Source: Actinomycetota bacterium
GTDB taxonomy: Bacteria > Actinomycetota > Thermoleophilia > Solirubrobacterales > 70-9
DNA length: 64,000 nucleotides
NCBI GenBank assembly: GCA_018268415.1
Contig: JAFDWO010000136.1
Coordinates: 494 to 64,493, forward strand
Direction of reading: 5' to 3'
Numbering within the stretch: position 1 is the first letter of the stretch; every line of letters begins with the position of its first letter. Below are positions 1,078 to 44,630 of the stretch, one piece after another. Made by a program: the position numbers and the translations under genes. Below the pieces are notes generated by a model. The model saw nothing but the letters and a program-made list of their open reading frames with translations, did no database searches and was not told the DNA's origin.

Positions 1078-1084
1078 CGACGGC

Positions 1085-1133
1085 GTTGACGGGCCGAAAA
1101 CTCCAGACATAGTGGAGTTTTCGGCCCACCAAC
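1085..1133. repeat. REP-like palindromic element, copy 1 (GTTGACGGGCCGAAAACTCC ... GGAGTTTTCGGCCCACCAAC)
   Basis: 20-bp arms with 2 mismatches and a 9-nt loop. Same family as 8635..8683 and 15360..15408. Lies just downstream of the EEP gene stop. Confidence 0.85.
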
Positions 1134-1163
1134 CGGTGTGGCGCGCGGCCGGCTGGGGCCCGA

Positions 1164-1345
1164 GGGAAGGGCCGGCGCTCAGGCAAGCCGGCGCCCGGGA
1201 AGGGACGGGGGCCTGGGTGAGCCGGCGCCCGTGGGGGAAGGGCCCCCGGCCCCTCAAGCTGCCGCCCGTGGGGAAGGGTCCCCGGCCCCCCTCAAGCTGC
1301 CGCCCGCGGGAAAAGGCCCCCGGTCCCCTCGAGCTGCCGCCCATG
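1164..1345. repeat. tandem array, about 5 copies of a 33-38 bp unit (GGGAAGGG..CCGG..CTCAAGCTGCCGCCC)
   Basis: GGGAAGGG or GGGAAAAGG recurs at 1164, 1197, 1235, 1271 and 1308. The last three units are near-identical. There are no unique spacers between units. Confidence 0.8.
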
Positions 1346-1502
1346 GCGCAAAGGGATGCGGCCGTCTCGTCCACGGCCCGGGCAGGCTGTGGCCGTGGCC
1401 GAGACGGCCGGGGGTGCGGGGAGCGGGCGGGGGAAGCACGGAAGGCCCCCGCGGGAGGGTGCGGGAGAGTGAGGCGGATCCCTCACGCGAGGGACACGGG
1501 TC

Positions 1503-1621
1503 TCCCACGGATCCCCCGATCCCGGCGTCCGGGGGCCGGAGGGTGCGACCGATCCGTCACGGGACCGTCACCGAAGGGGGACCCCGTCACGGAGACGTAG
1601 GGAACGTCACCCTTCCCTCCC
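1503..1621. repeat. about 118-bp dispersed repeat unit, copy 1 (TCCCACGGA..CCCGGCGTCCGGGGGCCGG..CCGTCACGGGACCGTCAC..CCCCGTCACGGAGACG..GGGAACGTCAC..CCTCCC)
   Basis: Aligns by eye along its full length with 1691..1806 with few mismatches. Its 3' 40 nt recur at 12541..12580 and, inverted, at 1923..1953. Confidence 0.8.
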
Positions 1622-1654
1622 ACCCTTCGCCATTACTCAAGGATCTCCGTGTTT

Positions 1655-1681
1655 AGTTTCGGTTGCTCAGCAACCAAAACT
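1655..1681. repeat. hairpin AGTTTcGGTTGC-TCA-GCAACCaAAACT
   Basis: Inverted repeat read directly from the sequence. It sits between the two 118-bp units. Confidence 0.6.
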
Positions 1682-1690
1682 CGACGCGCG

Positions 1691-1806
1691 TCCCACGGAC
1701 CCCCGATCCCGGCGTCCGGGGGCCGGAAGTGCGACCCTTCCGTCACGGGACCGTCACGGAAGAGCGACCCCGTCACGAAGACGTCGGGAACTCCACGCCT
1801 CCTCCC
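1691..1806. repeat. about 118-bp dispersed repeat unit, copy 2
   Basis: See 1503..1621. Confidence 0.8.
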
Positions 1807-1830
1807 GTGTTGTCCAACGCTCACGGACGC

Positions 1831-1874
1831 GTTCCGGACTTTGACCCTGCCATGGCAGGGTCAAAGTCCGGAAC
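1831..1874. repeat. 44-bp perfect palindrome GTTCCGGACTTTGACCCTGCCA|TGGCAGGGTCAAAGTCCGGAAC
   Basis: Left half 1831..1852 is the exact reverse complement of 1853..1874, with a central CCATGG. Flanked on both sides by copies of the GTCACGAAGACG..GGGAAC motif in opposite orientation. Confidence 0.9.
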
Positions 1875-1922
1875 GTGTTCCCGGGCCCTCCTTCCGGGCC
1901 CGGGAACGGACCAAAGGGTCCC

Positions 1923-1953
1923 GGGAGGGTGACGTTCCCGGCATCTTTGTGAC
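1923..1953. repeat. inverted partial copy of the repeat-unit 3' end (GGGAGGGTGACGTTCCCGGCATCTTTGTGAC)
   Basis: The reverse complement GTCACAAAGATGCCGGGAACGTCACCCTCCC matches 1586..1621, 1772..1806 and 12545..12580. Confidence 0.7.
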
Positions 1954-2016
1954 CGATCGGGGCGGGGTGTGGCCCCTCCCGCACGGACCCGTCACGGAAG
2001 TCCGACCCCCTCCCGT

Positions 2017-2070
2017 CCCGGGCGCCTCATGGCGCTCACAGCCTGCCAGGAGCGCCATGAGGCGCCCGGG
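2017..2070. repeat. inverted repeat with perfect 21-bp arms (CCCGGGCGCCTCATGGCGCTC / GAGCGCCATGAGGCGCCCGGG) and a 12-nt loop
   Basis: Read directly from the sequence. Confidence 0.85.
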
Positions 2071-2072
2071 AC

Positions 2073-2235
2073 CATCTCGGACGGGTGCGGGGCCCGGGGT
2101 CGCGCCGCATCTCGGACGGGCGCGGGGGCCCGGGGTCGGGACGCAACTCGGACGGGCGCGCGACCCGGGCCGCTCCGCATCGCCGCCCCCGTGCCGCATC
2201 TCGGACGGGTGCCACGCCCACGAGTCGCGCCTGGC
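2073..2235. repeat. tandem array, about 5 copies of a 29-36 bp unit (CATCTCGGACGGGYGCGGGGCCCGGGGTCG)
   Basis: CATCTCGGACGGG or CAACTCGGACGGG occurs at 2073, 2108, 2144 and 2206, with a degenerate copy at 2177. A further CAACTCGG lies near 2358. Confidence 0.75.
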
Positions 2236-2253
2236 CCTTCTCGACGGTCCCGC

Positions 2254-2304
2254 CCCTCCGCTAGTTCCTATGCGCCTCATAGGCGCATAAGGAACAGCGG
2301 AGGG
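2254..2304. repeat. imperfect inverted repeat CCCTCCGCTAGTTCCTATGCGCCT-cat-AGGCGCATAAGGAACAGCGGAGGG
   Basis: About 23-bp arms with two single-nt indels. Confidence 0.7.
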
Positions 2305-2456
2305 ATCTCGGGGACGGCGGGACGGGCGCGGACCGCGCCGCCCCGCGCCCCCCAGGACGCAACTCGGCCGGCCGGCCCGGCCGCGAGCCACGCCCGACCC
2401 CCCCGCCAGCCTCAAACGCCGTGGAAGCCTGCCGGTGCTGGGATCGCCGGCGCTGC

Positions 2457-8634: not shown

Positions 8635-8683
8635 GTTGATGGGCCGAAAACTCAAGCATGGCTTGAGTTTTCGGCCCATCAAC
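8635..8683. repeat. REP-like palindromic element, copy 2 (perfect 22-bp arms GTTGATGGGCCGAAAACTCAAG / CTTGAGTTTTCGGCCCATCAAC, 5-nt loop)
   Basis: Lies between convergent genes. The stop codon of the minus-strand methyltransferase ORF falls inside the right arm. Confidence 0.9.
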
Positions 8684-10067
8684 CTGGAGGTGTTGGGGAA
8701 GTGTGGCGTTCCAGCAGGGCCACGCACTCGATGTGGGGGGTCTGGGGGAACATGTCGACGGGGCGGACGCGGCGGAGCTTGTAGCCGGCCTCCTCGAGCT
8801 GGGAGGCGTTCGGGGCCAGGGTGGTCGGGTTGCAGGAGACGTAGACGATCTTCTGCGCCTCGCACTCGATCAGGCGGCGGACGATTTTCTGGGAGAGCCC
8901 GGCGCGGGGCGGGTCGACGACGACCACGTCCGGTTTGCCCGCCTCCTCGATCAGGGGGCGCACGCCGGTGCGGGCGTTGGCGGCGACGAACCTGGCGTTC
9001 TCGATCTTGTTGCGGCGGGCGTTGCGCTCGGCGTCGGCGATCGCCTCGGGGACGATCTCGAGGCCCCAGACCTCGCCCGCCGCCCCGGCCATCGAGAGGC
9101 CGATCGTGCCGATGCCGCAGAAGAGATCGAAGACGCGCTCCCGTCCCGTCAGCCCGGCGAACTCGGTCGCCACCGCGTAGAGGCGCTCGGCCATCTCGGT
9201 GTTGGTCTGGAAGAAGGCGCCGTGGGACATCTCGAAGTCGAGACCGCAGAGCTTCTCGTGCAGGCGCTCTTCGCCGAGCGCGCCGGTCGGGCCGTCGGTG
9301 CCGCCCGAGTCACCCTCGATCGTCGTGTGGAGGTCGACCGGTGGCCGCGGCAGCCGTGACGCGGTGGTGACCAGGCGGGTCTGGATCTGGCCGGTCCGCC
9401 GCCCCTCGCGGACGACGAGGTTGCGCAGCACGCCGCGCCGCGCCCGCGCGTCGTAGGCGGGGACGTCCTCCAGCCGGGCCCATTCGCGCACCCCGTTGCG
9501 CGCCGCGTTCCCCGCTTCGGAGGCGAGCTTGCAGTCGTCGACGTCGACGATCAGATCCCAGCGGCCGCGCGCGTGGAAGCCGAGCGCGACGCCCTCGTCG
9601 GCGGTGCCGACGGCACCCTCGCCGAAGGAGTACTCGAGCTTGTTGCGATACCGCCACTCTTCGACGGCGGGGACGATCGGCTCCATCTCGAAGCCGTCGA
9701 GGCCGCCGATCCGTCGCAGCGAATCCTCCACCTGGGCCTGCTTCTCGGCCAGCTGGCGCTCGTAGGGAAGGCCCTGCCACGGGGCGCCGGGGCAGGGCTC
9801 GCCGCCGTGGATGCAGCGGTCAGGGGTCCGGTCGGCGCCGGGACGAAGGAGGTCGATCGTGCGCGCCTCGGCGAAGCGCTTCTTGCCTTTCGTCACCTCG
9901 GCGAGGACGCGGTCACCCGGCAGCCCGCCCGCGACGAAGAGGACGAAGCCGTCCGCGCGGGCGACCCCGCGGCCGCCGAAGGCGAGCGAGTCGATCTCCA
10001 CCTCGAGCCGCTCGCCTCGGCGCGGCGCCTTCCGCGGCGCCGCCTCGGTTCCGGTCCCGGCCTCCAC
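8679..10067 (-). CDS. TRAM-domain class I SAM-dependent RNA (uracil-5) methyltransferase, RlmD/RumA family
   Basis: 462 aa with a GTG start. N-terminal TRAM-like region (LEVEIDSLAFGGRGVAR), then DLFCGIGTIGL, DPPRAGL and YVSCNPTTLA motifs. Confidence 0.8.
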   Translation of the reverse strand: MEAGTGTEAAPRKAPRRGERLEVEIDSLAFGGRGVARADGFVLFVAGGLPGDRVLAEVTKGKKRFAEARTIDLLRPGADRTPDRCIHGGEPCPGAPWQGLPYERQLAEKQAQVEDSLRRIGGLDGFEMEPIVPAVEEWRYRNKLEYSFGEGAVGTADEGVALGFHARGRWDLIVDVDDCKLASEAGNAARNGVREWARLEDVPAYDARARRGVLRNLVVREGRRTGQIQTRLVTTASRLPRPPVDLHTTIEGDSGGTDGPTGALGEERLHEKLCGLDFEMSHGAFFQTNTEMAERLYAVATEFAGLTGRERVFDLFCGIGTIGLSMAGAAGEVWGLEIVPEAIADAERNARRNKIENARFVAANARTGVRPLIEEAGKPDVVVVDPPRAGLSQKIVRRLIECEAQKIVYVSCNPTTLAPNASQLEEAGYKLRRVRPVDMFPQTPHIECVALLERHTSPTPPG

Positions 10068-10528
10068 TAAGGGAGTTTCCTGCGCGCCTGGCGGACCAGC
10101 TTTTCCAGCTCCGTGAGCAGCGCGTCGGTCTGTTTGCGGCCGCGTTTGAGCAGCTCGCCGATCATCTTCTCGGCGTCCCCGTGGGTCATCCGGCCGCGTT
10201 TGACGGCGTCGTCGACGACCTCCTGGATGCGCTCACGACTCAGCGTGACGCTGTGCTCGAGTGAGTCGCGCAACTGGGCGAAGCTTTTGTCGAGGCTCAC
10301 CGATTTCGATTTCGACGACCCGGCTTTTTTGGCTTTCGCCGCCGTCGTTTTTTTCGCGGCCTGTTTTTTGCCCGCGTTCGGTTTCGCTTTTTTGCCCGCG
10401 GCTTTTTTCGTTTTGCTCGCCGCCGCTTTTTTCGGTTTCGCTTTCGCTTTTTTCGGTTTCGCTTTCGCTTTTTTCGGTTTCGCTTTGCCGGCGTCCGCTT
10501 TGCCGGTGTCTTTGTTGTCGGCCATCAC
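10067..10528 (-). CDS. Lys/Ala-rich histone-H1-like repeat protein with a phasin-like (COG3937-like) C-terminal coiled coil
   Basis: 153 aa. N-terminal half is KKAKAKP repeats. C-terminal 75 aa (RERIQEVVDDAVKRGRMTHGDAEKMIGELLKRG) look like a PHA-regulator/phasin-type helix. Its stop overlaps the GTG start of the downstream methyltransferase by 1 nt. Confidence 0.55.
   Translation of the reverse strand: MMADNKDTGKADAGKAKPKKAKAKPKKAKAKPKKAAASKTKKAAGKKAKPNAGKKQAAKKTTAAKAKKAGSSKSKSVSLDKSFAQLRDSLEHSVTLSRERIQEVVDDAVKRGRMTHGDAEKMIGELLKRGRKQTDALLTELEKLVRQARRKLP
10425..10487. repeat. 3 x 21-bp perfect tandem repeat inside the Lys/Ala-rich gene (encodes KAKAKPK x3)
   Basis: GCTTTTTTCGGTTTCGCTTTC is repeated head to tail. 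Confidence 0.9.
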
Positions 10529-10584: not shown

Positions 10585-11427
10585 TCAATTCGCGAGCGCG
10601 GGTGGGTCCCCTCTGGTGAAGACCGCCTCGATCGGGGCGTGGTCGGAGAGGCGGAGGGCCTTGCCGTCGAGCGAGAGCTCGCGCCGCTCGGGCGGCCACG
10701 GAACCGGCGCCGTGTCAACCTCGAGGCCGCGCACGAGCACGTGGTCGATCTTCTTTGGCCCGGTCGTCGGCGAGGCGAGGCCGAAGTCCGCGGCCAGGCG
10801 CTCGAAGACCTCCGGGTCCTCGGCCGGGCGCAGGTTGAGGTCTCCGCCGAAGACGAGCGGCGCGTCGCCGGCCCAGTCGCTCGCCGCCCGGGCGCCGCGC
10901 AGCACGTCGGCGCTCGCCAGCTTCGGCCGGTCGTTGGTCGCGTGCAGGTTGGCGACGCAGAGGCCCGAGGCCGTCCGCGTGAAGGCCATCGCCCGTCGCT
11001 CCGGCTCGCCCGCGTGGATCTCCAGCTCGCGCCGCTCGGCGATCCCGCCGAGCTTCCCCGGCACCCGCACCAACGTCGTGTTCGAGCCGCCCTCGCCGCT
11101 CGCCATCAGGTCCGGGTTCTGCCGTGCCAGCAGCGCCCGCCAGAAGCCGAGCTCGTTGCGGGAGGTGAGGACGCGGTGGTACTCGGCAGCGCTCGCCCGC
11201 GCCAGCGGCCCGGCGAAGCGCGGCGGGCACTCCTGCAGCATCGCCACGTCCCAGGCGGCGCTCGAGAGCAGCGTCGCGAACTCCGGGGTGAGATCGCGGT
11301 TGACCTGGATGTGGGTCTCGTTGGACTCGTCCAGGCGCAGGAAACGTGAGCGCCAGGTGCGTAGCTCGGGGTCCGGCGGGAAGTCGCGGCCGTGGAAGAG
11401 GTTCCAGGAGAGGACGGTGATCTTCAT
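10585..11427 (-). CDS. endonuclease/exonuclease/phosphatase (EEP) family protein
   Basis: Internal start MKITVLSWNLFHG at 11427 of the 683-aa ORF 10585..12636; upstream of this the ORF is antisense to argF. 280 aa. C-terminal GGDLN and LSDHAPI motifs. Confidence 0.7.
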   Translation of the reverse strand: MKITVLSWNLFHGRDFPPDPELRTWRSRFLRLDESNETHIQVNRDLTPEFATLLSSAAWDVAMLQECPPRFAGPLARASAAEYHRVLTSRNELGFWRALLARQNPDLMASGEGGSNTTLVRVPGKLGGIAERRELEIHAGEPERRAMAFTRTASGLCVANLHATNDRPKLASADVLRGARAASDWAGDAPLVFGGDLNLRPAEDPEVFERLAADFGLASPTTGPKKIDHVLVRGLEVDTAPVPWPPERRELSLDGKALRLSDHAPIEAVFTRGDPPALAN

Positions 11428-11448
11428 GTCGTCCGTAGTATCGGCGCC

Positions 11449-12342
11449 TTGAAGCGAGACTTCCTCACCGGTGAAGAGCTGAGCGCCTTCGAGCTGGAGC
11501 GCCTGCTCGATCGCGCCGCCGACCTCAAAGCGGGTCGTGATCCGGCGCGGAAGGGCGGTCGCCTCGGTGCCGACTCGCTCGCCGGGCGCAGCGTCGCGCT
11601 CGTCTTCGAGCGCCCCTCGACCCGCACGCGCATCTCCTTCGACGTCGGCGCCTCCGAGCTCGGCGCCCATCCGGTGGTGCTGCGCGGGGACGAAATGCAG
11701 CTCTCCCGCGGCGAGTCGATCGGCGACACCGCGCGCGTCCTTTCCCGCATGGTCGACGGAGTGGTGATCCGCTCCGGGTCCCACGAACGGGTGGTCGAGC
11801 TGGCCAAGGCCGCCGACGTCCCGGTCGTCAACGCCCTGACCCCGTTGCACCACCCCTGCCAGGCGATCGCCGACCTGCTGACGCTGCGGGAGCGCTTCGG
11901 TGATCTCGCCGGACTGCGCCTCGCCTACGTCGGCGATGGCAACAACGTGGCGCGGTCGCTGGCCGTGCTGGGGGAGCTTGCCGGGGTCGAAGTGGTCGTC
12001 GCGGCGCCCGCTGATTACCAGCTCGAGGAGGCCCACGGGGTGAAGCTGACCGGCGATCCGCGCGCCGCCGCGGCCGACGCCGACGCCCTCTACGCCGACG
12101 TCTGGGTGAGCATGGGCGACGAAGACGAGGAGCGGCGGCGGCGTGATCTCGCCCCGTTCCGGCTCGACGCCGACCTGCTCGACGCGGCGAAGGACTCGGC
12201 GGTCGTTCTGCACTGCCTTCCGGCCCACCCGGGCGACGAGATCACCGCCGACGTCCTCTACGGCCCGCAGTCGGCCGTCTTCGACCAGGCCGAGAATCGC
12301 CTGCACGCGCAGAAGGCCCTGCTCGAGCTGCTGCTCGGCTGA
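11449..12342 (+). CDS. argF: ornithine carbamoyltransferase
   Basis: STRTRISFDVG, HPCQAIADLLT and LHCLPAHPGDEI motifs. A TTG at 11449 gives the usual N-terminus (KRDFLTGEEL) and avoids overlap with the EEP gene. The ORF-track start 11392 is the alternative. Confidence 0.85.
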   Translation: MKRDFLTGEELSAFELERLLDRAADLKAGRDPARKGGRLGADSLAGRSVALVFERPSTRTRISFDVGASELGAHPVVLRGDEMQLSRGESIGDTARVLSRMVDGVVIRSGSHERVVELAKAADVPVVNALTPLHHPCQAIADLLTLRERFGDLAGLRLAYVGDGNNVARSLAVLGELAGVEVVVAAPADYQLEEAHGVKLTGDPRAAAADADALYADVWVSMGDEDEERRRRDLAPFRLDADLLDAAKDSAVVLHCLPAHPGDEITADVLYGPQSAVFDQAENRLHAQKALLELLLG

Positions 12343-12540
12343 CCCGCGGGGCGCGCGGGGCCGAGCCGGCGCTCGGGGACCGCGGCCCGGCCGAGCTGTC
12401 GCCCGGGCCCGAGGGGACGCTGCCGCCTCGAGCTGTGCCCGAGGAAGGGGACGTGGCCCTCTCGCCGCGACCCCGGCAGGTTGTGGCCGTGCCGAGAGGG
12501 CCGGGGTATGAACGGCGTGGAGGATTCGTGACCGAACTCG

Positions 12541-12580
12541 CCCCGTCACGAAGACGCCGGGAACGTCACTCCTCCTCCCC
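12541..12580. repeat. copy of the repeat-unit 3' end (CCCCGTCACGAAGACGCCGGGAACGTCACTCCTCCTCCCC)
   Basis: Matches 1582..1621 and 1767..1806. It is embedded in a 600-bp non-coding region that shares further motifs with 1078..2456, such as CCTCGAGCTG and CCCTCCCGTCCCGGG. Confidence 0.75.
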
Positions 12581-12590
12581 GATCCCTCCA

Positions 12591-12659
12591 CGCTCAGGAA
12601 TGTCCGTGGAATATTGCCGTTGCTGGGGAACGGCAATATTCCACGGAGGTTCCTGAGCG
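12591..12659. repeat. long hairpin: perfect 18-bp core CCGTGGAATATTGCCGTT / AACGGCAATATTCCACGG extended by CGCTCAGGAA / TTCCTGAGCG
   Basis: Read directly from the sequence; 7-nt loop. Confidence 0.85.
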
Positions 12660-12941
12660 TTGATCCGGGCCCGGGAAGCGACCGGGCGCCGGTTCCTCCA
12701 GACGATCACGGAGGCACGACTTCGTGATCGTCCCCGTGTCGTCTTCCCCACGCACCCCTCCCGTCCCGGGTACGCACCTCGGGGGCCGCCCCGCCACGCA
12801 TCCGACGTCGATGGCGCGTCAACATCCCCGGCGCGCCTGATCGCTATCGTGTCCGACCCGCTGCCCAAGCGGAATTCTCGCTACCATGGGCGGCATACGC
12901 AAGAGTTTTGGAGCGGTCAACCAAGAGAGGATAGGCGGGGA

Positions 12942-15359: not shown

Positions 15360-15408
15360 GTTGACGGGCCGAAAACTCAAGATGGACTTGAGTTTTCGGC
15401 CCGTCAAC
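15360..15408. repeat. REP-like palindromic element, copy 3 (perfect 22-bp arms GTTGACGGGCCGAAAACTCAAG / CTTGAGTTTTCGGCCCGTCAAC, 5-nt loop)
   Basis: Lies between the convergent lysS and SDR genes. Followed by CTGG, as in copy 2 (copy 1 has CGG). Confidence 0.9.
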
Positions 15409-43397: not shown

Positions 43398-44630
43398 GTG
43401 AAAGTGCCAAGTAGGAACGGCGGCCCCGAGGCCACGAAACAGCGTTGGCTGTCGCTCGTCGTCGGTGTCTTCCTGATCGCCGCGCTCACGGTCGGGCTCA
43501 CGGCCTGCGGCGGTGGCGGCAGCACTACCTCGGGCGGCTCCAACGAAGAAGCCGCGGCGGGGGAAGAAGCCGGCGGCGCCGAAGAAGGTGGGGGCAGCTC
43601 CGAACTCGCCTCCTTCGAAAAAAAACTGGAAGAAGCGAAAGAAACGGAGCCGAACCACTGGGAAGGTCCGACCGTTCCGGTGACTCCGCCCAAACACTTC
43701 AAGGTGGCGGGCGTCAGCTGCTCCAGTCAGCTTGAAGGCTGCCTGACCCCGCTCCAGGGCGCCGAAGACGCGGCCAAGGAACTCGGCTGGGAATTCGAAA
43801 TCTACGACGGCGAAGGCGACCCGACGGTCCAGGCCAAACGGATCCAGCAGGCGATCCAGAAAGGCGCCAACGCGCTGATCCTCGCCGCGGTCGAAGGCAA
43901 CTCGGTGAAAAGCGAGCTGGAAGAAGCCGAAAAGGCCGGGATCATCGTCATCTCGACGACCAACGGCACCGCGCCCGGCGAACAGGGCTACAAGATCGAC
44001 ACCTCGCCGAACGTGACCGCGATCGGCAACGCGGTGGCCGACTGGATGATCGTCGACAGCGGCGGCAAGGCGGTCGTCACCCCGTTCGTCGACCGCGAGT
44101 TCCAGACCAACCTCGACTTCTCCGAAGGCATCGAAGAAGAGCTCAAGCAGTGCTCGGGTTGCAAGATCGAATCGCCGGTCAACTTCGTCGCGACCGACGT
44201 CGGCAGCAAGCTCGGCGCCAACACCACCGCGTACCTCCAGCAGCACCCCGAAGTCGGGTACTTCTACTCGACCTACGATCCGGCGATGGCCGAACAGGTC
44301 GCCGCCGTGCAGCAGGCCGGGATCGAAGTGAAGTCCTGCAGTCAGCTCGGTGACGCTCAGAACCTGAGCTTCATCAAAAACGGACAGGTGCAGGCCTGCG
44401 ACGGTGCCTGGGACAACGAGTATGAGGGCTACGCGACGATCGATCAGATCATCCGCCTGGCCACGCACAAACCGCTCTGGGTCAGCAAGAACGTTCCGCC
44501 GCGGTTCAAATACGGCGAGAACATCCCCTGGGTTCTGCTCGAAAAGAACAACCTGCCCGAAAGCGAAGAAACGTACCGGGCCCCGTTCGACTACATCAGC
44601 GAATACCAGAAGCTATGGGGTCTGAAGTAA
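43398..44630 (+). CDS. sugar ABC transporter substrate-binding lipoprotein
   Basis: GTG 43398 (or 43404) follows an AAAGGAGGAG RBS. Signal peptide with lipobox LTAC followed by a Gly/Ser/Glu linker. Periplasmic-binding-protein type I fold. Confidence 0.8.
   Translation: MKVPSRNGGPEATKQRWLSLVVGVFLIAALTVGLTACGGGGSTTSGGSNEEAAAGEEAGGAEEGGGSSELASFEKKLEEAKETEPNHWEGPTVPVTPPKHFKVAGVSCSSQLEGCLTPLQGAEDAAKELGWEFEIYDGEGDPTVQAKRIQQAIQKGANALILAAVEGNSVKSELEEAEKAGIIVISTTNGTAPGEQGYKIDTSPNVTAIGNAVADWMIVDSGGKAVVTPFVDREFQTNLDFSEGIEEELKQCSGCKIESPVNFVATDVGSKLGANTTAYLQQHPEVGYFYSTYDPAMAEQVAAVQQAGIEVKSCSQLGDAQNLSFIKNGQVQACDGAWDNEYEGYATIDQIIRLATHKPLWVSKNVPPRFKYGENIPWVLLEKNNLPESEETYRAPFDYISEYQKLWGLK

Follow-up and report, generated by a model that had tools for sequence, protein, structure and literature searches.

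A non-coding, hairpin-rich composite repeat in the genome of an uncultured soil Solirubrobacterales actinobacterium

The spacer at positions 1078–2456 of the window (the whole 64,000-nucleotide stretch of DNA analyzed here) carries a previously undescribed non-coding, hairpin-rich repeat of an uncultured soil Solirubrobacterales actinobacterium. The segment at about 1136–2448, between the terminator hairpin of an EEP gene and the stop codon of a cytochrome c gene, is one full-length copy, about 1.2–1.3 kb long, of a single colinear composite of ~1.2 kb, and not a chance pile of nested repeats. We think it probable, though by no means assured, that the family is a lineage-specific, non-autonomous, DNA-level mobile element resembling REP/BIME/REPIN and foldback elements.

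The gap is flanked by the EEP (Exo_endo_phos) gene, which ends at 1077, and by a minus-strand cytochrome c gene at 2457–2864. Pfam gave zero matches for the five longest ORFs that overlap the gap and for one ORF that enters it from the EEP gene, and a self-trained codon-usage gene finder made zero calls inside it; Pro/Arg/Gly-rich ORFs do exist there. Copies of the central module, K, have no 3-base periodicity, and the lengths of their indels are not multiples of 3. Against Rfam, the region gave only weak matches to miRNA and sRNA models, far below threshold, and across the entire window only a tRNA reached the gathering score. Plasmid sequences held no similar DNA, and a search of viral contigs with two hairpin patterns gave a single chance match, which is not a hairpin.

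There are six strong hairpins in the gap, and the DNA folds of T, H, the K palindrome, P, and Q have z-scores of −6 to −11. Directly 3′ of the EEP stop codon lies the terminator-like T hairpin (1085–1133, no strand assigned; −20.4 kcal/mol, z −7.9), which belongs to a separate family of about 100 copies, 86 of them solitary, and is outside the composite element. The element itself, read on the plus strand, begins with a left tandem array of a and A units of 34–38 bp (1164–1346), whose outer units are degenerate and in which TRF finds 3.2 copies of period 38 at 1226–1346. The H hairpin follows (1347–1412; arms 1359–1378 and 1391–1410, with one conserved mismatch, around the 12-nt loop CGGGCAGGCTGT; −27 kcal/mol, z −6.3), and then the S spacer module (1413–1502), the first U unit (1503–1621), which has GTCAC(G/C) motifs and a copy of the K left arm, the h module (1622–1688), and the second U unit (1689–1772), which continues into the K core. 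The two U copies are part of a duplicated unit of ~118 bp (1503–1621 and 1689–1808, ~87% identity over the unit), which contains an 85-nt ungapped core, D3, with 81% identity between copies (second copy 1718–1802) and a 28-nt tract, D12, identical in both (second copy 1700–1727). In the K core (1773–2006), imperfect inverted arms of 31 nt (1772–1802 and 1923–1953) close a multi-branch fold, the RNA fold of 1760–2010 reaching −160 kcal/mol (z −8.7); the interior holds a perfect palindrome with 26-bp arms and no loop (1827–1878) and a second hairpin (1877–1909, DNA fold z −4.2). The P hairpin (2012–2075) has perfect 23-bp arms (2015–2037 and 2050–2072) and the 12-nt loop ACAGCCTGCCAG (−34.8 kcal/mol, z −9.7). 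It leads into the right tandem array of ~36-bp C units (2066–2230, with an extra degenerate unit at 2355–2374; TRF 2073–2181, period 36, 3.1 copies) and the Q hairpin (2254–2304, no strand assigned; −26.2 kcal/mol, z −7.8), a local variant of its family. Finally, a degenerate or unique tail of the insertion runs from 2305 to 2448; BLAST coverage drops to 0 past ~2395. The window copy is internal to a 72-kb contig.

This map bears out much of a sequence-only reading, which had seen no credible gene, two tandem arrays of ~35 bp (here ~36-bp units), a duplicated ~118-bp unit, and at least four long palindromes. Those at 1827–1878, 2015–2072, and 2254–2304 are strong, and those at 1359–1410 and 1085–1133 can be added, but the proposed hairpin at 1655–1681, within the h module, is only weak (z −2.2).

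The repeat is abundant in its own 4.74-Mb genome, which is ~70% GC. BLAST of the region against that genome returns 1785 HSPs at E ≤ 1e-5 (2184 at E ≤ 1e-3), and each hairpin family of the composite has about 50–190 copies. There are about 190 H hairpins, about 163–193 P hairpins (133 exact matches of a 52-mer), about 100 K palindromes, about 80 U units, about 52 h modules, 70–92 S modules, every one of them after H, and about 82–91 Q hairpins, always distal to the C array. Full K cores number 69, with a median pairwise identity of 91.8% and 94% identity to their consensus. Profile searches with nhmmer found 388 A units, 0–7 per H hairpin, and 587 C units, 0–8 per P hairpin; the arm motif GACGYNGGGAAC has 748 copies when one mismatch is allowed, and the motif CCGTCACGG has 562. 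Repeat islands of at least 100 bp, defined with a k = 20 repeat mask, number 420 and make up 3.9% of the assembly. Three quarters of the contig ends (240 of 320) lie inside repeats, which are the main reason that these MAGs assemble poorly.

The copies obey a common grammar. With n for a variable number of units, the composite order is (a)n(A)n–H–S–(U h)n–K–(B)n–P–(C)n–Q, and order and orientation are kept in 214 of the 222 loci with at least three modules. The 90 H..P pairs lying within 1 kb all agree in relative orientation and span a median of 645 bp, and sub-families differ by their central palindrome or hairpin. This colinear order corrects the earlier picture of nested repeat families. 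The suggestion of a dispersed family holds, as does that of conserved scaffolds with variable hairpin cassettes. The hairpin cores, oppositely, are not unique as had been thought: the only single-copy one is at 12603–12647, in a second locus (12343–12800, plus strand) that had been noted as containing related pieces. From its sequence and its module matches, that locus is a decayed relative of the same superfamily. It contains half an H hairpin (12475–12505), the arm motif GTCACGAAGACG..GGGAAC (12541–12579), CCCTCCCGTCCCGGG, the single-copy central hairpin, with a 19-bp stem, and a B/P-start motif near 12757–12771.

H and P are two divergent versions of the same hairpin, set in opposite orientation, and share a 12-nt loop on covarying stems of 20–24 bp. 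When reverse-complemented, the P loop ACAGCCTGCCAG gives CTGGCAGGCTGT, the commonest variant of the H loop; the window copy of H has G at the variable second loop position. The loop 10-mer ACAGCCTGCC occurs 331 times in the genome, where roughly 10–30 occurrences are expected by chance, and 354 hairpins have a loop made of it plus two more bases. A G.A / T.C mismatch in the H stem is conserved, being seen in 154 copies. Among 26 distinct hairpins from several MAGs, double compensating changes occur in 18 of 25 pairs, and 91.5% of cells are paired, versus 75.9% in shuffles, none of 500 of which reached as high a value. Invariance of the loop across species is partly built in, most foreign hairpins having been gathered by an exact loop match. 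At the scale of the whole element, foldback symmetry is partial (inverted chain score 165, versus 72 for direct and 31 ± 23 for shuffles), so that the element as one giant palindrome finds only partial support.

The elements are extragenic; they are strongly enriched in convergent spacers, and divergent ones have almost none. Islands of at least 300 bp overlap predicted genes, as placed by the codon-usage gene model, by 0.1%, and elements occupy 50 convergent, 34 tandem, and 4 divergent spacers, against a genome background of 565, 2899, and 608. Their median distance beyond stop codons is about 100 bp, and their orientation relative to neighboring genes has no bias (10 versus 8). The T hairpin was considered as an insertion target and rejected; only about 8 elements abut one.

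Species differ in the presence and absence of the element. At the window site the spacer is 1379 bp in the genome of the window (G000), 58 bp in G050, and 522 bp in G012. In G050 the T hairpin is the sole content, with ~8 bp from hairpin to cytochrome c stop codon, and the tail of the insertion is missing from this empty site; G012 has a smaller element in the opposite orientation, and also the T hairpin, with compensating stem changes. Other orthologous spacers measure, in the same order of genomes, 1257, 81, and 21 bp; 1595, 134, and −7 bp; 1344, 89, and −7 bp; 1444, 247, and 219 bp; and 1493, 255, and 298 bp. Spacers that are filled in G000 are often empty at the corresponding sites of its two nearest species. 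Many orthologous spacers of relatives carry other small hairpin elements, and turnover by recombination at permissive sites is therefore possible. Concerted evolution of orthologous elements was rejected as an explanation, since what fills the spacers of the relatives is unrelated small elements or genes, and not diverged copies. H is high-copy in both G012 and G050, at 94–98% identity between species, whereas flanking coding DNA is 73–92% identical. Among 41 genomes searched (own genome included), the K core is found only in the window's species. Most congeners lack the family, as do all of the other 300 genomes sampled from the order. A species-specific K core, with copies nearer to their consensus (94%) than to each other (91.8%), points to a recent burst. 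The family occurs in independent MAGs, and the same architecture occurs in a long-read Solirubrobacterales assembly, so the repeats are real and not an assembly artifact.

Several known systems resemble this family in part. First, as in REPs and BIMEs, extragenic GC-rich palindromic units are joined with conserved linker motifs in mosaics, lie at gene 3′ ends and between convergent or co-oriented genes, avoid promoter regions, and form sub-families that differ through compensating stem changes. A survey of eight phyla (PMC3733652) defines REP units as 20–40 bp long, with 6–13-bp stems, 4–5-nt loops, and an unpaired GTAG or CGTC tag; among the species that its text names there is no actinobacterium, and a term search of it turned up no Actinobacteria. 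H and P, at 52–58 nt with 20–24-bp stems and a 12-nt loop, do not fit that short palindrome and tag. The sequence-only view that the region is unlike plain terminators or classical REPs has held up. Moreover, the element has stems of 20–26 bp and a conserved 12-mer as its loop, and it builds composites of up to 1.3 kb in which about 11 modules keep a fixed order and the two tandem arrays vary. Its mosaic construction, kept in those 214 loci, resembles BIMEs in architecture only, as the units are not homologous to E. coli palindromic units.

Second, as in REPINs, two related inverted hairpins form the amplification unit, copies number in the hundreds in a star-like population around a master sequence, and a single trans-acting enzyme is presumed. 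But H and P have different stems and lie 200–800 bp apart, and therefore cannot pair with each other as REPIN arms do. The REPIN enzyme, RAYT (TnpA_REP, a Y1 HUH transposase), whose gene usually has the repeats at its sides, was not found either: the search for RAYT/IS200 genes that had been suggested found no Y1_Tnp match (PF01797) in the three repeat-rich genomes, G000, G012, and G050 (90–94% complete), although control genomes did match.

Third, the NTS/dRS3 and SRM repeats and Neisseria NIMEs likewise consist of hairpin repeats clustered in mosaic intergenic arrays, and the small GIY-YIG single-strand nuclease Ssn recognizes NTS/dRS3 and SRM hairpins as single-stranded DNA (PMC11893778). 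By inspection, however, H and P do not fit the SRM motif (HGTCWY.., 7-bp stem, 0–5-nt loop), and loop identity is dispensable there, whereas the loop is the conserved part here (PMC11893778). Each repeat-rich genome has a single GIY-YIG match, in a UvrC-like frame of 630–930 aa, and no single-domain Ssn-type gene of ~90–100 aa. The repeat-free congener G046 has a second, partial GIY-YIG match, in a 168-aa frame.

Fourth, the family shares with MITEs (e.g., Correia) and foldback elements a probably non-autonomous, non-coding nature, candidate inverted ends, and insertion polymorphism between relatives; the A/H and P/C ends recall the long inverted termini of tandem sub-repeats in eukaryotic FB transposons. 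As candidate terminal inverted repeats there are the inverted homologues H and P and the K arms (81% complementary). In contrast to MITEs, the family yielded no parent IS that shares its ends, and lengths of 0.3–1.3 kb are above those of typical bacterial MITEs. Finally, a CRISPR array was rejected, because successive units follow each other head to tail at periods of 36–38 bp, with no spacers between them.

None of the H..P or arm pairs has a transposase-like gene between its members, no copy contains genes inside its ends, and the genome has almost no multi-copy protein genes; among the families listed, the only transposase-like one is a two-copy IS3-like ORF. Genes with an element on either side were rejected as partner enzymes, being ordinary regulators, a transporter, an alanine dehydrogenase, and a cupin. 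At four loci with empty sites from G012 and G050, the junctions are too diverged to show a target-site duplication; at the window site at most a 4-bp CCGG is seen. Nor could sharp ends be defined, the outer array units fading into unique sequence; terminal segments of 50–60 bp were rejected as shared ends, since they are single-copy. Outer array units are not detectably older than inner ones, as nhmmer scores of A units do not decay by rank and, among C units, only the first scores higher.

If the family is indeed a non-autonomous mobile element, it would multiply at the DNA level through a trans-acting, structure-specific protein that recognizes extruded or single-stranded H and P hairpins by their common loop, much as RAYT recognizes REP/REPIN ends. 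Tandem arm units would expand and shrink via slippage, and copies would survive only in 3′ spacers, because no promoter is broken there. What the data show is the copy number, the grammar, the bias to extragenic and convergent sites, the covariation, and the differences in presence between species; the identity of the enzyme and the chemistry of transposition are inferred from these. More speculatively, and as a suggestion that we would rather doubt than assert, the family might represent a novel class of foldback-type mobile DNA with hairpin ends in Actinomycetota, copied by an enzyme family not yet tied to repeats, neither RAYT nor Ssn, that reads the 12-nt loop on extruded or single-stranded H and P, with the ~36-bp arm arrays as footprints of its repeated action.

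An alternative that we regard as unlikely is that the elements are 3′-end RNA elements selected by the host and transcribed by read-through, serving as terminators, 3′–5′ exonuclease barriers, or insulators of convergent transcripts, with spread being secondary. Their position about 100 bp past stop codons, convergent enrichment, and extremely stable folds would suit such roles, which are known for classical REPs (PMC3733652), and stem covariation suits RNA as well as single-stranded DNA. But the loopless palindrome with 26-bp arms and the perfect 23-bp stems are DNA-type features, and, because H and P show their common loop on opposite strands, any single transcript displays two different loops. 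A length of 1.2 kb is also far beyond what termination needs: relatives have spacers of only −7 to 90 bp there; there is no orientation bias; and a consensus scan found 2 terminator-like sites versus 0.7 expected, which is not an enrichment, and none at the big hairpins.

BIMEs are bound by IHF, DNA gyrase, or Pol I. By analogy, the elements could be landing pads on DNA for chromosome-organizing proteins, retained by the host to relieve positive supercoiling between convergent genes. Enrichment in convergent spacers, mosaic architecture with conserved motifs (the 748 and 562 copies above), and better conservation of H between species than of coding flanks all agree with this idea. Nevertheless, we consider it improbable: absence from most congeners and the other 300 genomes marks the family as dispensable, sites are empty in sister species, and freely covarying stems speak against sequence-specific reading of double-stranded DNA.

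It is very improbable that the copies are individual genes, each encoding a large structured non-coding RNA with kissing H and P loops. Those loops are complementary over 10–12 nt in one strand, and the K core takes up a closed, multi-branch fold (z −8.7), but about 100 or more copies with optional modules, arrays of variable number, a central hairpin swapped among sub-families, and a species-specific core, with no Rfam match, promoter signal, or orientation preference, argue otherwise. A reading of the region as debris (gene decay, a degenerate CRISPR array, or misassembly) is already refuted by copy number and cross-genome recurrence: although repeats break the assembly and Pro/Arg/Gly-rich ORFs exist, there are hundreds of ordered copies, array units abut without spacers, the window copy is internal to its contig, and independent MAGs, one assembly being long-read, contain the same family.

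About 4% of the genome of an abundant, uncultured soil lineage consists of this family, and with it a typical convergent spacer grows from about 50 bp to about 1.2 kb. Its sequence families are useful as markers for binning and strain typing and for masking in Solirubrobacterales annotation, and the invariant loop on covarying stems offers a concrete bait for a protein search. Combining features of REP/BIME, REPIN, and foldback elements while lacking both known partner enzymes of hairpin repeats, the family is therefore a tractable case for how RAYT-less hairpin repeats spread and act.

The gap between the Exo_endo_phos (EEP) gene, which ends at 1077, and the minus-strand cytochrome c gene (2457-2864) had been read from sequence alone as lacking a credible gene. 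This holds: its long Pro/Arg/Gly-rich ORFs have no Pfam match, a codon-usage gene model trained on the window's own genome (G000) calls no gene there, and Rfam has no family for any part of the region. Tandem Repeats Finder reports both of the tandem arrays noticed before, at 1226-1346 (period 38) and 2073-2181 (period 36), and a repeat search places the two copies of a unit of about 118 bp at 1503-1621 and 1689-1808. The search also returns palindromes T (1085-1133), H (1359-1410), K (1827-1878, 26-bp arms with no loop), P (2015-2072, 23-bp perfect arms and a 12-nt loop) and Q (2254-2304). The last three correspond to palindromes already described; a fourth, at 1655-1681, proves to be a weak hairpin, with z of -2.2 in single-stranded DNA folds as against -6 to -11 for the five main hairpins and -4.2 for a second K hairpin (1877-1909). 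At a second locus, 12343-12800, where related pieces had been claimed, the named motifs are present. Of the long minus-strand ORF at 10585-12636, the part up to about 11390 is a genuine EEP-like gene, and the remainder is a shadow of argF on the opposite strand. A histone-like protein of 153 aa (10067-10528, minus strand) has an N-terminal tail, rich in Lys and Ala, that is encoded by T-rich tandem repeats at 10334-10510.

The sequence-only reading took these repeats for a dispersed family rather than a local oddity, and the genome-wide count bears this out. A BLAST search of the G000 assembly (4.74 Mb, 160 contigs) with 1078-2456 gives 1785 further HSPs, each part of 1082 to about 2390 recurring tens to hundreds of times. 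Exact 20-mers occurring at least 3 times cover 4.1% of the assembly, and 420 repeat islands of at least 100 bp, 88 of them longer than 700 bp, make up 3.9%. Because 240 of the 320 contig ends lie inside repeat islands, the repeats evidently fragment the assembly, and true copy numbers must therefore exceed those counted. Exact hairpins with stems of at least 13 bp number 800, of which 725 lie outside predicted genes. Their main families are P (163), K palindrome (97), Q (91) and T (89), so the hairpin cores, which had seemed unique, are unique only inside the window.

The long islands align colinearly with the copy in the window. Its modules run from left units of about 36 bp (a/A) through hairpin H (1347-1412), optional modules S, U and h, the K core (1773-2006), B units of about 33 bp that are nearly absent from the window's copy, hairpin P (2012-2075) and right units of about 36 bp (C) to hairpin Q. 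Of the 222 loci with at least three modules, 214 keep the same arrangement, a*A* H S (U h)* K B* P C* Q, in both order and orientation. All 90 H..P pairs no more than 1 kb apart share one relative orientation (median span 645 bp); 57 enclose the K core, and the others enclose other middles with other central palindromes, which matches the earlier notion of a conserved scaffold around a variable cassette. A hairpin family, GAGTTCGCAnnT...AnnTGCGAAC(G/T)C, is common to several species (L026, G050:C94; L027, G012:C175; L067, MAG 5N322) and is at times the central palindrome of an A-H..P-C element. In the U units (window 1555-1610), GTCAC motifs are spaced 11, 19 and 20 bp, and CCGTCACGG occurs 562 times genome-wide; it is conceivable that the recurring GTCAC motifs have a common candidate binding protein.

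T hairpins (GTTGAYGGGCCGAAAACTC..GAGTTTTCGGCCCRTCAAC) make up a family of their own, and 86 of the roughly 100 copies are solitary. In the window they are found at 1085-1133, 8635-8683 and 15360-15408, each time between convergent genes. The two nearest species, G012 and G050, retain the one that follows the EEP gene at the orthologous site, with compensating changes in its stem; this suggests that it is a REP-like unit or a conserved terminator acting in both directions.

H and P are diverged copies of one hairpin, inverted at the two sides of the element, because a 12-nt loop is common to both classes. The loop 10-mer ACAGCCTGCC occurs 331 times in G000. With up to one mismatch allowed, it lies in the 12-nt loop of 354 hairpins, whose stems measure 20 bp in the H class (opposite-strand reading) and 23-24 bp in the P class. 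A fixed mismatch in 154 H copies is G.A on the strand with loop ACAGCC... and T.C on the other. In an alignment of 26 distinct hairpins from G000 and several other MAGs, 18 of 25 pairs show double compensating changes, and 91.5% of cells are paired versus 75.9% in shuffles, with no shuffle or slid register coming near. Loop invariance is partly built into this alignment, because most foreign hairpins were gathered by exact loop match; the loop is also present, without such selection, in H copies of G012 and G050, in G012 hairpins at two orthologous sites and in the opposite-end hairpin of the long-read MAG 5N322. That the stems covary while the loop is conserved points to a folded single strand or a cruciform, rather than plain duplex DNA, as the form recognised. 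The loop's presence on opposite strands at the two ends, together with the loopless palindromes, points to DNA rather than one RNA.

The element is non-coding and extragenic. Among 69 full copies, the K core lacks three-base periodicity of substitutions and its indel lengths are not multiples of three; islands of at least 300 bp overlap predicted genes by 0.1%. Islands with both neighbouring genes known lie in 50 convergent, 34 co-oriented and 4 divergent contexts, against a genome background of 565, 2899 and 608, and orientation is random in co-oriented contexts (10 versus 8). The median spacer with an element is 1163 bp, versus 51 bp for all convergent spacers.

For 14 long elements, the coding flanks were joined and used as queries against G012 and G050. 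The spacers measure, in bp and in the order G000, G050 and G012, 1379, 58 and 522 at the window site; 1288, 580 and 1134 at site 2 (in G012 this spacer has genes but lacks an element); 1493, ~255 and 298 at site 4; 1219, ~663 and ~681 at site 8; 1444, 247 and 219 at site 9; 1257, 81 and 21 at site 10; 1595, 134 and -7 at site 11; and 1344, 89 and -7 at site 14. At the window site, G050 has the T hairpin alone between the stop codons of the two genes, whereas the slot in G012 is taken by an oppositely oriented, smaller element whose middle differs. Non-empty spacers of the relatives hold mostly other small hairpin/MITE-like repeats, not a diverged G000 element. Between species, H copies are 94-98% identical versus 73-92% for coding flanks. 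K copies are 94% identical to their consensus versus 91.8% to one another, the pattern that a burst from a master copy would be expected to leave. Together, these spacer differences and identities demonstrate that the elements were gained in a lineage-specific way. Target-site duplication could not be demonstrated at the orthologous sites in G012 and G050, where junctions are too diverged, and the arrays grade at their outermost units into sequence that is single-copy.

Several G050 and G012 spacers where G000 has the big element are filled by a MITE-like element of about 115 bp (L147, G050:C149:6100-6550; L144, G050:C94:15120-15480; L148, G012:C221:2510-2930); G050 copies have inverted ends GGCGGCGTGGGGGC...GCCCACGCCGCC, and G012 has an inverted, diverged copy with differing ends. 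A segment of about 60 nt, AAAAAGCCCGCCGGGACAGTGTCTGGGGAGAATCCCGGCGGGCTAGTGTCTCGTCCAC, at C98 ~43,625-43,714 of G000 and in its orthologues in L147 and L148, is conserved in three species. It directly precedes the stop codon of the convergent gene downstream and could be a terminator or small RNA.

Across 41 genomes, G000 included, the K core is confined to this species. Only three congeners (G000, G012 and G050) have the H hairpin in high copy number, and G001 has one diverged copy. These three are the largest and the most fragmented, or among the more fragmented, of the genus (3.5-4.7 Mb versus 1.9-3.3 Mb for the other congeners listed). A search pattern built on the P variant of G012 detects the family in about 10 MAGs named Solirubrobacterales or uncultured actinobacterium, one a long-read assembly with Mb-scale contigs; its other matches, all single, are probably chance. 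The 5N322 element keeps the plan A-H-middle-P-C over about 560 bp between convergent genes. When 300 genomes sampled evenly across the order were scanned with a covariance model of the hairpin, no further genome proved to have it, one weak match (E = 2e-4) aside, and our literature search found no description of such repeats for Solirubrobacterales or Thermoleophilia.

Y1 transposases (RAYT or IS200-type), for which the sequence-only reading advised a search, are absent from the three repeat-rich genomes. So is an Ssn-type nuclease (Ssn and SRM as defined in PMC11893778), because the only GIY-YIG domain there belongs to a frame the size of UvrC; a congener free of the repeats has a second, partial GIY-YIG match in a 168-aa frame. 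Among the multi-copy protein families listed, one 2-copy IS3-like ORF alone is transposase-like. Neither the H..P interval nor the stretch between K arms encloses genes in any copy in a manner suggestive of an autonomous element, and genes with elements on both sides are ordinary. None of nine genomes of the genus, namely G000 and eight congeners, has an SbcD (TIGR00619) match above the family cut-off. This could explain why long perfect palindromes are tolerated, but the observation is weak and genus-wide.

RNA-level roles, such as termination and 3' protection, or roles in DNA topology may coexist with mobility, but either would leave unexplained the element's size, its dispensability in sister species and the fact that opposite strands carry identical loops. 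The evidence best supports a non-autonomous mobile element of the REP/BIME/REPIN type, differing in its enlargement to 0.3-1.3 kb; it also resembles foldback elements, with ends here formed by a hairpin plus tandem sub-repeats. For such a mobile element, copying would depend on a candidate protein that reads the H/P loop on folded DNA, and selection against promoter damage would confine the copies to 3' spacers.
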